DNA of 20,000 nt. Origin: an uncultured Methanosarcinales archaeon (GTDB lineage: Archaea > Nanobdellota > Nanobdellia > Woesearchaeales > CAYNLP01). The notes below the pieces were generated by a model. That model was given only the letters and a program-made list of their open reading frames with translations. It did no database searches and had not been told where the DNA came from. Both the position numbers and the translations under genes were made by a program. The stretch covers positions 44,909 to 64,908 of the forward strand of contig CAYNLP010000004.1 in NCBI GenBank assembly GCA_964398115.1. The letters run 5' to 3'. Below, piece by piece: positions 1 to 13,496 of this stretch (positions within the stretch are counted from its first letter, which is position 1; every line of letters begins with the position of its first letter).

Positions 1-954
1 AGATTAGGTGAGCATGAGTTACAATTCTTTGATGAACCTCTTTCTGACGATAACGTTTCTGAGGCAGAAGATGCTGATGCAATAGCTATCTTCATATATT
101 CCGAAGCTAGTGAAGAAATACTTTCGCGATTTGAAAACTTGAAGCTTATCTCGACGATGAGTACAGGGTTTGACCATATAGATCTGGAGTATTGTAAGGA
201 AAATGAAATAACTGTTTGTAACGTACCAACTTATGGAGAAAATACCGTGGCAGAACACACTTTTGCATTGATACTTGCCCTGTCAAGAAAACTATATCCT
301 TCTATAGAAAGGACAAGAGAAGAACACACTTTCCAAACGGATAGAAGCTTAAGAGGATTCGATCTGAAAGATAAGACCTTGGGGATAATTGGCTGTGGAA
401 ATATCGGGCAGCACACGGCTAGGATGGCTAACGGTTTCGAAATGAATATCAAAGTTTTCGACGTTAACCAAAATCCTGAACTTGCTGAAAAAATAGGTTT
501 CGAATATGTAGATATGGATGAATTACTCTCAACATCCAACATTATAACTTTACACGTCCCCTTAAATAAACACACCTATCACATGATTGATGAAGAAGCT
601 ATAGAGAAGATGAAAGAAGGAGTTTACATAGTAAACACTTCACGAGGAGAGGTTATAGATACCAACGCTTTAGTAGAAGGTTTGCAAAATGGCGAAATAG
701 CTGGAGCGGGTTTGGACGTTTTGGAAGGTGAAGGAGAATTACAAGAAGAAGCTGCAGTTCTAAAACAAGAATACAAGGAAGAACACGACTTGAGAACTTT
801 ACTGCAAGATCATATGATGATGAAAATGGATAATGTTATTATCACACCTCATAACGCTTTCAACAGTCGAGAAGCGTTGATGAGGATTTTAAACACTACA
901 ATCGAAAATGTTCAGGGTTTCGATTCAGGTAACGTTGTAAATGAGGTGAGTTGA
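1..954 (+). CDS. D-isomer-specific 2-hydroxyacid dehydrogenase (D-lactate dehydrogenase-like), 5'-truncated by the window edge
   Basis: Frame 1 is open from base 1 (RLGEHELQFFDEPLS...), so the gene starts upstream of the window. Motifs: STGFDHID, NVPTYG, Rossmann GIIGCGNIG, LHVPL, NTSRG, LDVLEGE, TPHNAF. Confidence 0.9.
   Translation, partial: RLGEHELQFFDEPLSDDNVSEAEDADAIAIFIYSEASEEILSRFENLKLISTMSTGFDHIDLEYCKENEITVCNVPTYGENTVAEHTFALILALSRKLYPSIERTREEHTFQTDRSLRGFDLKDKTLGIIGCGNIGQHTARMANGFEMNIKVFDVNQNPELAEKIGFEYVDMDELLSTSNIITLHVPLNKHTYHMIDEEAIEKMKEGVYIVNTSRGEVIDTNALVEGLQNGEIAGAGLDVLEGEGELQEEAAVLKQEYKEEHDLRTLLQDHMMMKMDNVIITPHNAFNSREALMRILNTTIENVQGFDSGNVVNEVS
943..949 (+). promoter_or_regulatory. 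Shine-Dalgarno site for ppsA
   Basis: GAGGTGA lies 6 nt upstream of the TTG at 956, inside the last codons of the upstream gene. Confidence 0.75.
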
Positions 955-955
955 A

Positions 956-3352
956 TTGGATTTTGTACGCTGGTTTGACCAGCTTGGAATGGGAGACGTA
1001 GACCTTGTTGGTGGTAAAAACGCTAGCTTGGGTGAAATGTATCAAAACCTTACCGAGCGAGGAGTTAACATTCCTAACGGTTTTGCAATTACAGCCGACA
1101 CCTACTTTTACATCTTAGAACAAAACAACGCTAAAGATAAGATTAGAGAATTACTTGGTGATCTTGACACTTCTAACATGCATAACTTGCAGAAGAGAGG
1201 TCGTAAAGTACGAGCCTTGATTCGAAATATAGAATTTCCAAAAAGAGTTCGACAAGCAATAGTTGAAAATTATCAGAACTTGTGTGAAGCCTACAGCATG
1301 GATGAAGTAGACGTAGCCGTTAGAAGTAGCGCGACAGCGGAAGACTTACCTGATGCGAGTTTTGCCGGACAGCAAGAAACTTACCTTAATGTGAAGGGAG
1401 AACGGGAATTGTTAGAAGCGTGCAAGAAATGCTTTGCTTCACTCTTCACCAATAGAGCAATTAGTTATAGAGAAGATAAAGGTTTTAACCATTTCAACGT
1501 GGGACTTAGCGTTGGAGTGCAAAAAATGGTGAGATCGGATAAAGCAAGTAGCGGTGTTATGTTTAGTATTGATACTGAATCCGGATTTAGAGACGTCGTG
1601 TTCATAACCGGTGCGTGGGGATTGGGCGAAAACGTTGTGAAAGGAGCTGTAAATCCTGACGAATATTATGTGCATAAACCTACTTTGAAAGAAGGACACC
1701 GTCCTATCGTTAGTAAGAAATCTGGTAGTAAAGAGATAATGATGGTTTATGATTTGGACAGTAATCAAACCACTACTAAGGATAAGAAAGTGCCAAAAGA
1801 GATGAGAGAAAAACTTGTTTTGAATGATGAAGAAGTATTGCAACTTGCAGAGTGGGCGTGTGAAATTGAAGAATACTATAGTGAAGAAAGAGATAAGTTT
1901 ACTCCTATGGATATGGAGTGGGCTAAAGATGGAGAAACTGGTGAATTGTTTATAGTCCAAGCTCGACCTGAAACGGTGCACAGCCAAGAGGGTAATGTGG
2001 TTAAAAAATACCATTTGAATGAAGAAAGTGAAAAGATTACGATGGGGCAAAGCGTGGGGGAAAGAATTGGAAGTGGTAATGCGAAGGTGATTAAGGATCC
2101 TCAAGAGATTGACAAATTTGAGGAAGGAGAAGTTTTAGTTACGGATATGACGGATCCAGATTGGGAGCCTATAATGAAAATGGCTAGTGCGATTGTTACG
2201 AATAGAGGAGGACGCACTTGTCACGCGGCTATCATATCGAGAGAGTTAGGAATTCCCTGCATAGTTGGGACAGAAAACGGTACGAAAGTGATTGATTCCG
2301 GTAATGGGGTCACTATTGACTGCAGTCAAGGAGAAGAAGGAGTTGTGTGGAGAGGATTGCTTGATTTCGATGTTGAACAAATGGACTTAGGAGAAATTCC
2401 GTCTACAGAAACTGGTGTAATGGTAAATATTGGAAATCCTGAGCAAGCGTTTAAGTTTGGTCAGCTACCTCACGACGGGGTTGGACTTGCACGGGAAGAA
2501 TTCATAACTAGCAGTAATATTGGAGTCCACCCACTTGCTTTGTTAAATTATGACAGTTTAGAGTTTGAACTTCAAAAACAAATAGAAGAGAGGCTTGGAA
2601 GGTATGATGATAAAAAGCAGTTCTTTATAGAAGAACTCGCTCAAGGAATTGGGACAATCGCTGCTGCTTTCTATCCAGAGCCTGTAATTGTGAGGATGAG
2701 TGATTTCAAAAGTAATGAATATGCTGATTTGATAGGTGGTGAGTGTTTTGAACCCGATGAGGAAAACCCTATGCTTGGATGGAGAGGTGCTTCCAGATAC
2801 TACAGTGATGAATATAGTGAAGCTTTTAGTTTAGAGTGTGAAGCTTTTAAGAAAGTAATTAACGAGTTTGGTTTGGATAACGTCAAAGTTATGATTCCTT
2901 TTGTGAGAACGCCAGAGGAAGGAAGAAAGGTCATTCAGGAATTGGAAAGCAATGGTTTAAACAAGGATTTTGTTGACATCATCGCAATGTGTGAAATCCC
3001 AAGTAATATTTTGAGAGCTGAAGAATTTCTAGAAGTGTTTGATGGTTTTAGTATTGGCAGTAATGACTTGACTCAACTCATATTAGGTATTGATAGGGAT
3101 AGCGGTTTAGTTTCTGACATTAGTGATGAGCGAGACCCTGCTGTTTTGAAAATGATAACGGAAGTTATTGAAAAAGCGAGGAGTAAAGGCAAGTATATAG
3201 GTATTTGTGGTCAAGCACCAAGTGATTTTCCGTTTGACGAGTTCGGTAAACACTTGGTCGACTCAGGTATTTCTAGCATTAGTTTGAATCCTGACAAAGT
3301 GGTTGAAATGATTTACAAAATTGCTGATTATGAACGAGATAACTCAGATTAA
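956..3352 (+). CDS. ppsA: Phosphoenolpyruvate synthase (pyruvate, water dikinase), TTG start
   Basis: Motifs VGGKNASLGEM, VAVRSSATAEDLPDASFAGQQET, phospho-His GGRTCHAAIISRELGIP, ENPMLGWRG, FSIGSNDLTQ, GICGQAPS; 798 aa. Confidence 0.97.
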   Translation: MDFVRWFDQLGMGDVDLVGGKNASLGEMYQNLTERGVNIPNGFAITADTYFYILEQNNAKDKIRELLGDLDTSNMHNLQKRGRKVRALIRNIEFPKRVRQAIVENYQNLCEAYSMDEVDVAVRSSATAEDLPDASFAGQQETYLNVKGERELLEACKKCFASLFTNRAISYREDKGFNHFNVGLSVGVQKMVRSDKASSGVMFSIDTESGFRDVVFITGAWGLGENVVKGAVNPDEYYVHKPTLKEGHRPIVSKKSGSKEIMMVYDLDSNQTTTKDKKVPKEMREKLVLNDEEVLQLAEWACEIEEYYSEERDKFTPMDMEWAKDGETGELFIVQARPETVHSQEGNVVKKYHLNEESEKITMGQSVGERIGSGNAKVIKDPQEIDKFEEGEVLVTDMTDPDWEPIMKMASAIVTNRGGRTCHAAIISRELGIPCIVGTENGTKVIDSGNGVTIDCSQGEEGVVWRGLLDFDVEQMDLGEIPSTETGVMVNIGNPEQAFKFGQLPHDGVGLAREEFITSSNIGVHPLALLNYDSLEFELQKQIEERLGRYDDKKQFFIEELAQGIGTIAAAFYPEPVIVRMSDFKSNEYADLIGGECFEPDEENPMLGWRGASRYYSDEYSEAFSLECEAFKKVINEFGLDNVKVMIPFVRTPEEGRKVIQELESNGLNKDFVDIIAMCEIPSNILRAEEFLEVFDGFSIGSNDLTQLILGIDRDSGLVSDISDERDPAVLKMITEVIEKARSKGKYIGICGQAPSDFPFDEFGKHLVDSGISSISLNPDKVVEMIYKIADYERDNSD

Positions 3353-9392: not shown

Positions 9393-12647
<3,255 letters not shown>

Positions 12648-13103
12648 TTATTCTAGGTAAAGCTCTGCTTTCTTTGGATCGTATTTCCAATCAGCTGGTA
12701 ACTTACCAGTCTGTTTGTAGTGCTTGGCGAGTCTGAGAATCTTACTTTCGGTAAGTTGTAATCCTCGCTTTGCAGAAGTGTCGTTAGGGTGTTCTTCTAA
12801 ATGATTTTCTATCCTAACTCTTTTCTTGATAAGTGCCATTAAATCTTCAGGGATTTCATGATCTAAGTCTTTTTCTTCGAGGATTTCCGTAATTTTTTTA
12901 CCTGTTATTTCTTTGACATCGGGAATTCCGTATTGGTCTCGAAGATGCATTCCTATCTCACTTGGATGCATTCCTTCTTTTGCGTACTTTGCTACTAGCA
13001 TTTCTACTTCGTTGGGTTCGTAACTAACCCAGCTCGGAATTTCTTTCTTGCTTGGCTTGGTACTTCCTGATTGTCCTTTATCTCGACTATGTATTCGTGC
13101 CAT
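12648..13103 (-). CDS. rps15: 30S ribosomal protein uS15 (archaeal S15P/S13e)
   Basis: Motifs MARIHSRDKGQSGSTKP, IGMHLRDQYGIP, IPEDL, KRGLQLTESKILRL, WKY; SD GGAGGT at 13112-13117. Confidence 0.97.
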   Translation of the reverse strand: MARIHSRDKGQSGSTKPSKKEIPSWVSYEPNEVEMLVAKYAKEGMHPSEIGMHLRDQYGIPDVKEITGKKITEILEEKDLDHEIPEDLMALIKKRVRIENHLEEHPNDTSAKRGLQLTESKILRLAKHYKQTGKLPADWKYDPKKAELYLE

Positions 13104-13178
13104 AAATTTTTACCTCCAAATGTGTTTCCGAGAACAAAAGAGTCTCGGTCTAACCCAGTTCTCACCAGGTCATCCTAG
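13104..13178 (-). ncRNA. Candidate structured cis-regulatory 5' leader of rps15
   Basis: Hairpin UGACCUGGU-GAGA-ACUGGGUUA (13151-13172; 9 bp with 3 G.U pairs, GNRA loop) and hairpin CCGAGA-N9-UCUCGG (13128-13148) lie between the TATA box and the SD. Confidence 0.6.
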
Positions 13179-13199
13179 AAATAAGGAATGATTGGTTTG

Positions 13200-13214
13200 T
13201 TTAAAAAAGTTACT
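13200..13214 (-). promoter_or_regulatory. BRE/TATA promoter of rps15
   Basis: AGTAACTTTTTTAAA, 14/15 identical to the element upstream of rps7. Confidence 0.65.
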
Positions 13215-13223
13215 AATTTTAAT

Positions 13224-13496
13224 TTACCACCAGTAGTAGTAACCACTTCGGTAGTATGGTCGGTTGTAACTCCTATAATAACTTCGGTAATGCCTCCTGT
13301 AATTATAGCCATCGTAGAATCCGTGGCCGTACCCTACTCTATAACCTCGGTGGTAATCATATCTGTCATGGTAGCTTCTGTCGTAATCATAATAATCTCT
13401 ATAACTTCTGTCATAGTAGTGGTAAGCGTTGGCACTAGCTACTGACATCAAAGTGACAAGTACTAAGAGTAACATTGTAGTTAATTTCTTCATCAT
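13224..13496 (-). CDS. Small secreted Tyr/Arg-rich low-complexity protein, 90 aa
   Basis: Signal peptide MMKK + hydrophobic core + ASANA; SD GAGGGGGT upstream. The mature 66 aa contain 24 Tyr and 12 Arg. Confidence 0.8.
   Translation of the reverse strand: MMKKLTTMLLLVLVTLMSVASANAYHYYDRSYRDYYDYDRSYHDRYDYHRGYRVGYGHGFYDGYNYRRHYRSYYRSYNRPYYRSGYYYWW

Follow-up and report, generated by a model that had tools for sequence, protein, structure and literature searches.

A candidate two-hairpin S15 leader in DPANN archaea and a possible, strongly diverged form of it upstream of an archaeal rps15–DHH operon

Ribosomal protein S15 is the model case of one protein that is recognized by numerous mRNAs which imitate its rRNA site and are unrelated to one another, and the archaeal examples described so far, from Halobacteria and Methanomicrobia, copy the junction of that site. 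The archaeal DNA considered here, a stretch of 20,000 nt referred to below as the window, contains an rps15 gene with two hairpins between its presumptive promoter and its Shine-Dalgarno (SD) sequence, and the question that this locus raises is whether these hairpins form an S15-responsive leader or are ordinary stem-loops with another role or with none.

The rps15 leader and its setting in the window

The features of the locus on which the argument depends are the following:

11268..12647, minus strand, gene for a DHH/DHH_CID/DHHA1 protein (RecJ/Cdc45-like, 459 aa), assigned from its Pfam domains
12648..13103, minus strand, rps15 (uS15, 151 aa), Pfam Ribosomal_S13_N (E 4.4e-26) and Ribosomal_S15 (E 3.9e-12)
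13112..13117, minus strand, Shine-Dalgarno sequence GGAGGU, 8 nt 5′ of the ATG, from sequence reading
13128..13148, minus strand, hairpin 2, a perfect 6-bp stem with a 9-nt U-rich loop, from reading and the minimum-energy fold
13151..13172, minus strand, hairpin 1, nine uninterrupted base pairs with a GAGA loop (13163..13160), from reading and the minimum-energy fold
13175..13177, minus strand, predicted transcription start of rps15, from the TATA-to-start spacing of leaderless genes and from the relatives
13199..13209, minus strand, T-rich TATA-like box CTTTTTTAAAC, candidate rps15 promoter, from sequence reading, the boxes of leaderless-looking genes and the relatives
13224..13496, minus strand, 90-aa ORF upstream of the rps15 leader, from ORF reading

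The TAA stop codon of rps15 runs straight into the ATG of the DHH gene, the two ORFs abutting each other, in keeping with the coupling of the two genes proposed in the initial annotation. The DHH gene itself is convergent with a bacterial-type gyrB (9393..11279, plus strand), the ORF ends overlapping by 12 nt. On its 5′ side, rps15 is separated from the 90-aa ORF by an intergenic spacer of 120 nt (13104..13223), which contains, in 5′-to-3′ order, the TATA-like box, hairpin 1, hairpin 2, 10 nt, GGAGGU, 8 nt, and the ATG. The 90-aa ORF has an SD-like GAGGGGG of its own and no Pfam match, and its product combines a signal-peptide-like N-terminus with a Tyr/Arg/Asp-rich low-complexity tail that has YYYWW at its end; the T-run of the TATA-like box may also terminate its transcript. 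With respect to lineage, the best named relatives of the aIF2-gamma encoded in the window belong to the Nanoarchaeota, Woesearchaeota, and Nanoarchaeia, at 64–72% identity, so that the earlier guess of a DPANN lineage stands.

By reading, a TATA-like box ends 22–29 nt 5′ of the ATG at 4 of 17 gene starts in the window (13623, 18612, 17139, and 15859). Many genes had been described beforehand as leaderless-looking; the four so identified encode a thioredoxin-reductase-like protein, a permease, aIF2-gamma, and SerRS, and the box-to-ATG spacing is 22–24 nt in three of them and 29 nt in the case of SerRS. When the same spacing is applied to the rps15 box, transcription is predicted to start at about 13177–13175, a few nucleotides before hairpin 1. 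The box at 13209..13199 would thus give rise to a leader of about 73 nt.

Hairpin 1 includes three wobble pairs (G13171.U13152, U13167.G13156, and G13166.U13157), the last of which is followed by G13165-C13158 and then by the loop-closing pair U13164-A13159; its sequence occurs once in the window and is not a repeated element. Hairpin 2 is made up of the arms CCGAGA (13148..13143) and UCUCGG (13133..13128) and ends 10 nt from GGAGGU (13117..13112) and 25 nt from the start codon. When the mRNA strand is folded to minimum energy, both hairpins form, and hairpin 1 is absent from the fold of the opposite strand. The earlier sequence description of this leader proved correct in every detail, including the 9-bp hairpin with its GAGA loop and the perfect 6-bp hairpin 10 nt before GGAGGU, the confinement of the G.U pairs to the mRNA strand, and the succession of G.U and G-C beside the loop-closing pair; the E. 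coli 16S bases with which that step was compared are likewise as stated, K-12 rrsH having G666 G667 and C739 U740.

Two further pairings were considered and not retained. The hairpin-1 loop together with two adjacent bases (GAGAAC, 13163..13158) is complementary to GUUCUC (13135..13130) in the 3′ half of hairpin 2, which represents a possible alternative pairing or pseudoknot in the window sequence; this alternative was set aside, the loops not being conserved in the relatives described below. When the intergenic region is folded as a whole, 13184..13175 pairs with the SD at minimum energy, and this was rejected as a mechanism because the upstream arm lies before the predicted transcription start and because the fold is no better than those of shuffled sequences.

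The most serious rival explanation of the locus is that the window hairpins are chance stem-loops in an ordinary SD-led 5′ UTR, with no S15 feedback, and the statistics of the single sequence are on its side. The 80-nt leader folds at -18.9 kcal/mol with a z-score of -1.20, 25 of 200 shuffles folding equally well, and a 129-nt stretch has a z-score of -0.88, with 37 of 200 shuffles as good. Uninterrupted hairpins of at least 9 bp, counted with G.U pairs allowed and loops of 3–8, are no commoner in the window than in simulated DNA, with 34 entries on both strands, some of which are overlapping versions of one hairpin, vs 46 ± 8.5 in 100 first-order Markov simulations. By their own sequence, the window hairpins are not separable from chance stem-loops.

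A two-hairpin leader in related archaea

A scan of genome contigs with the S15 protein of the window yielded 23 rps15 loci, none of them from a close relative of the window (best S15 identity 62%), of which 21 are archaeal and had their upstream regions compared, the other two being weak bacterial partial hits. A strongly conserved, covarying two-hairpin motif was found in 5 of the 21 archaeal loci, at the same place upstream of rps15:

L001 (Nanoarchaeia), 2390-2458, plus strand, two-hairpin motif
L006 (labelled Methanosarcinales), 2429-2491, plus strand, two-hairpin motif
L008 ("archaeon"), 2376-2443, plus strand, two-hairpin motif
L009 (Woesearchaeota), 2399-2477, plus strand, two-hairpin motif
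L017 (Woesearchaeota), 917-976, plus strand, two-hairpin motif

In the alignment of these five leaders (A1), hairpins 1 and 2 directly abut. The 11-pair stem of hairpin 1 carries a bulged purine in its 3′ strand and ends in a G.U / G-C / U.G apex, beneath which there is a one-by-one mismatch; hairpin 2 has a near-invariant GGAGA / UCUCC stem. Paired states account for 94.4% of the cells of A1, a value reached by 0 of 500 shuffles and to be compared with 37–50% in slid controls for the five loci, and both-sided changes occur in 6 of the 18 pairs, which is reached by 2 of 500 shuffles; hairpin 1 is 100% paired across the five loci and contains five covarying pairs. Consistent with that, RNAalifold gives the same two helices for the five relatives, and each of their leaders folds alone into the same two hairpins. 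At the hairpin-1 apex, G.U is present in four of the five, G-C in all five, and U.G in four, L008 having U-A, G-C, and U-A instead, so that the G.U/G-C step singled out in the window recurs at the same hairpin-1 position in the relatives. The loops of the relatives, on the other hand, vary in length and in sequence, and the GNRA loop of the window, which had been put forward as a feature of the leader, is therefore not a conserved one.

A TATA-like 8-mer ends 22–26 nt before the motif in four of the five relatives and in the window, and 39 nt before it in L001; from its placement, the relatives' motif is predicted to begin where the rps15 mRNA begins. In four of the five relatives the gene upstream is divergent, which argues that their motif is not a 3′ UTR, and a DHH/DHH_CID/DHHA1 gene follows rps15 on its 3′ side in four of the five as well as in the window. 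In the relatives, the motif and the SD are separated by 16 to about 75 nt. Where the strong motif is present in the loci examined, there is a single copy of it, placed before rps15.

The leader is not universal in the group: L002 (2371-2509) has no motif despite an S15 that is 62–64% identical to those of the window, L001, and L017, and its rps15 is near-leaderless, with a TATA-like box at a distance of about 27 nt from the ATG. As for L006, its motif is of the DPANN type and has no match to the Rfam S15 leader models, and its S15 is 61% identical to that of the window; the label Methanosarcinales may not fit this contig. A further observation concerns two blocks of the relatives, AGAGAU and CUGGAGA/G (A1 columns 3–8 and 42–48), that flank hairpin 1 and, when joined, closely resemble positions 703–716 of E. 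coli 16S rRNA in helix 23 (compared over positions 701–716 of rrsH, L024). Helix 23 is not known to be an S15 site, and the likeness of the flanking blocks to 703–716 may be a coincidence.

Neither the window leader nor that of the relatives corresponds to a catalogued family. Rfam 15, which we take to include the S15-Methanomicrobia model, gave no relevant match to the window at gathering thresholds and only mir-312 (E 2.2, inside rps15) when 12950..13350 was scanned at E <= 10; against the five relatives it gave no match at either setting, nor in a focused 91-nt scan of L006. The S15-Halobacteria model performed as expected on a positive control (L019, 59.4 bits). The window has no match to that model (RF03143) at its gathering score of 49 bits, nor at E <= 10 within 12950..13350, and by reading its core, AUCCGAC ... 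UUGGGAUUGCGG in one long interrupted hairpin, is absent from 13104..13223. The S15-Methanomicrobia core, GUAAGUCCGA ... UUGGGAUUAC, is absent from the window leader and from those of the five relatives. The leader would thus be, as had been supposed, new to Rfam, no Rfam 15 family being found in the window or in the five relatives.

In the accessible part of Eckert and Weinberg 2020 (PMC7247131), archaeal S15 leaders are described only for Halobacteria (RF03143) and Methanomicrobia, which agrees with the earlier statement that such motifs had already been proposed for these two groups. They are located upstream of rpsO and recJ (Table 1 of that text gives the gene context as rpsO, plus recJ and rps3ae) and are proposed to bind S15 by imitating the 16S multistem junction. 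The terms DPANN, Woesearchaeota, and Nanoarchaeota have 0 occurrences in the same accessible part, and in the literature searched, to the extent of its available text, neither an S15 leader nor a leader for any other r-protein is reported from DPANN archaea. The motif of the relatives is a good and apparently uncatalogued candidate for an S15 leader; it is a stronger candidate than the window element and constitutes the firmest result of this analysis.

Relationship of the window leader to that of its relatives

The membership of the window leader in this class was assessed with a covariance model of the five relatives built without the window (R1), whose training sequences score 62.8–75 bits, and with a leave-one-out model rebuilt without L008 (R2). 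With default filters, R1 found nothing besides the five training motifs in 136 kb. With filters off, the highest of 21 weak matches in the window fell on the rps15 leader (9.8 bits; the next two, 9.5 and 9.4), and R2 likewise ranked the leader first (next match, 10.3 bits), so that the leader is the best match for both models in 20 kb on both strands:

13124..13177, minus strand, stretch aligned to the models (R1, 9.8 bits, E 0.85; R2, 10.6 bits, E 0.61)

The left-out L008 scores 35.8 bits (E 1e-6) under R2, and the S15 proteins of the five motif loci are 57–61% identical to each other and 57–61% identical to that of the window; as L008 was found at a comparable S15 distance, a typical member of the class in the window would have been detected. 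The background of R1 comprises four matches of at least 9.8 bits in 16 motif-free loci (81.7 kb), none of them before rps15, and four more, of 10.2–13.5 bits, in the five motif loci, one of which is the reverse strand of a true motif. This amounts to 8 matches in control DNA totalling 106.6 kb (213 kb when both strands are counted), or about one per 27 kb of strand, and hence to about 0.005 expected in a one-strand target of 120 nt. A second R1 match in L009 (2315..2363, 13.5 bits), which overlaps the promoter region, was treated as noise, and an alignment that mixes four background matches with the true motifs (A3) was left out of the counts.

When the R1 alignment is read pair by pair, 15 of the 18 model pairs form in the window, one is deleted, and two are mismatched. 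Hairpin 1 retains 9 of its 11 pairs, with one deleted and one replaced by A x G, and keeps the bulged A and the GGU / ACU apex in the form G.U / G-C / U-A, the internal mismatch of the relatives having become a U.G pair. Counted in stacked layers from the base of hairpin 1, the G.U comes tenth both in the relatives and in the window. Hairpin 2 retains 6 of 7 pairs, its stem reading CGAGA / UCUCG vs GGAGA / UCUCC, so that the GAGA / UCUC core is kept and the outer G-C pair is flipped to C-G. One column at the hairpin junction is deleted relative to R1, and the invariant blocks AGAU, AU-R-CUGGAG, and UCUCC are absent or altered in the window, which reads GGAU and A-GAC-CGAG. The match starts 22 nt after the TATA-like box TTTTTAAA, on the right strand and directly upstream of rps15. 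With MAFFT, the window leader was not alignable to the five relatives, and the MAFFT alignment, which had placed the GAGA loop on the GAGAGAU block of the relatives, was discarded.

The window leader therefore shares with that of the relatives its position, strand, box-to-start distance, operon, hairpin order, bulged purine, apex, and GAGA/UCUC core, and differs from it in its score, 9.8 bits vs 62.8–75 for training sequences and 35.8 for the left-out one, and in the missing conserved blocks. Its placement is suggestive and its model score is at noise level; at best, it is a strongly diverged variant of the relatives' motif. In favor of the chance explanation, both scores lie inside the background range, which extends up to 13.5 bits, a primary-sequence alignment to the relatives is lacking, and the near-leaderless rps15 of L002 shows that the gene manages without any such element in this group. 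It is more difficult to reconcile with chance, however, that the top model match lies exactly within the 120 nt of interest, on the strand of rps15 and as far from a TATA-like box as in the relatives, that the G.U/G-C step occupies the same layer of hairpin 1, and that the core of hairpin 2 is kept while the pair flanking it has changed on both sides. On balance, the origin of the window hairpins by chance appears rather unlikely, and an S15-responsive leader in the window, as a diverged variant of the relatives' motif, is considered plausible from the sequence, if not quite probable. The autoregulatory S15 leader in DPANN archaea postulated in the initial annotation has accordingly fared differently in its two parts, a conserved leader being present in five relatives and the window itself matching it with scores, 9.8 and 10.6 bits, that do not rise above noise.

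Proposed mode of action and known S15 leaders

In the model favored here, the leader of the rps15–recJ-like operon would be an S15-responsive RNA and a strongly diverged form of the two-hairpin leader of Woesearchaeota and Nanoarchaeia. Hairpin 1 would imitate helix 22 of 16S rRNA, with the G.U/G-C step ten layers away from the base at which it adjoins hairpin 2, and a surface of two parts, the junction of hairpins 1 and 2 and the GU/GC step, would thus be offered to uS15 as in rRNA. According to the accessible text of Slinger 2015 (PMC4684408), the S15 site of rRNA consists of a junction and a GU/GC motif about 10 pairs away from it, and E. coli S15 reads the latter through H41, D48, and S51. 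H41 and D48 are invariant in seven archaeal uS15 sequences aligned with E. coli S15, and S51 is not conserved across these seven.

Surplus uS15 would bind the leader, following which the expression of rps15 and of the coupled DHH gene would be lowered. In the window, where 25 nt separate hairpin 2 from the start codon and 10 nt separate it from the SD, hindrance of 30S loading would be the most likely effect; the spacing of 16 to about 75 nt in the relatives makes effects on mRNA stability or on early termination conceivable as well. A common anti-SD pairing, of the hairpin-2 3′ arm with the SD, was dropped, as by eye it fits only L001 and L006 of the six leaders. The structures, their position, the gene context, and the conservation among the relatives are observed, and the start of transcription, the binding of S15, the direction and mode of control, and the homology of the window element to the relatives' motif are inferred. 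In its most general form, the hypothesis is that Woesearchaeota and Nanoarchaeia possess an uncatalogued class of two-hairpin uS15 leaders that copy the GU/GC motif of helix 22 at one helical turn from a junction, that the window holds a fast-evolved variant in which junction pairs were compensatorily replaced, and that the mechanism may differ from SD occlusion, e.g. by acting through 5′-end-dependent stability or through early termination at the U-rich hairpin 2. This wider hypothesis is put forward tentatively, as a possibility somewhat less likely than not.

A functional 5′ leader with a partner other than S15, serving in protection from 5′-to-3′ decay or binding another protein such as the RecJ-like nuclease, would account for a structure at the predicted extreme 5′ end and for the variable motif-to-SD distance, which fits poorly with simple SD occlusion. 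It accounts less well for the occurrence of the strong motif once per locus and solely before rps15 in the loci examined, and for the conservation of a G.U/G-C step that is a known S15 determinant according to the accessible text of PMC4684408. This explanation is regarded as improbable, and distinctly more so than chance. That the hairpins serve the upstream 90-aa ORF, which is on the same strand, stops at 13224, and is followed 15 nt after its stop by a T6 run, as its 3′ end or terminator is very improbable indeed, as the TATA-like box lies upstream of them, the motif is present in the relatives though their upstream gene is mostly divergent, and archaeal transcription termination depends on oligo-T and not on hairpins.

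If the S15-responsive reading is true, the leader would represent a third class of archaeal S15 leaders, found in DPANN archaea, and the first archaeal one using the GU/GC site and not the junction. It would also give DPANN archaea their first described r-protein leader, would extend the series of S15 mimics to a lineage with reduced genomes and little-known gene control, and would provide a simple, testable RNA–protein pair with an RNA of about 55–80 nt. For the window itself the value is smaller, since its element is only a possible member of the relatives' class. It has to be noted that an S15 autoregulatory leader is a known kind of element, and that what is new is the two-hairpin structure.

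The leaders of Halobacteria and Methanomicrobia are the closest in setting, being archaeal and placed before rps15 and then a recJ-like gene, a context that the window shares. They differ in having a common GUCCGA ... UUGGGAUU core and in imitating the multistem junction, whereas in the window and its relatives two hairpins abut each other, a G.U/G-C step is present, and the GUCCGA ... UUGGGAUU core is absent. The rpsO leader of E. coli folds into a pseudoknot over the SD and the start codon and acts by ribosome entrapment. The archaeal form differs from this bacterial pseudoknot in consisting of two simple hairpins at the 5′ end, at least 25 nt from the start codon. The E. coli leader, whose pseudoknot imitates the GU/GC site (Slinger 2015, PMC4684408), resembles it in that G.U followed by G-C is the presumed S15 determinant and in that a second contact, which resembles the rRNA less, is located at about one helical turn from it. 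With respect to the rRNA itself, where the comparison is to bacterial rRNA only, the leader differs from the h20/h21/h22 junction in having no third helix and no visible copy of the junction nucleotides. It resembles helix 22 in the G.U followed by G-C, with the polarity of E. coli G666.U740 / G667-C739, in the irregular layer just 5′ of the G.U (C x A/U in the relatives and, by sequence, A665 facing G741 in E. coli), and in the distance of about 10 layers between this step and the helix junction.
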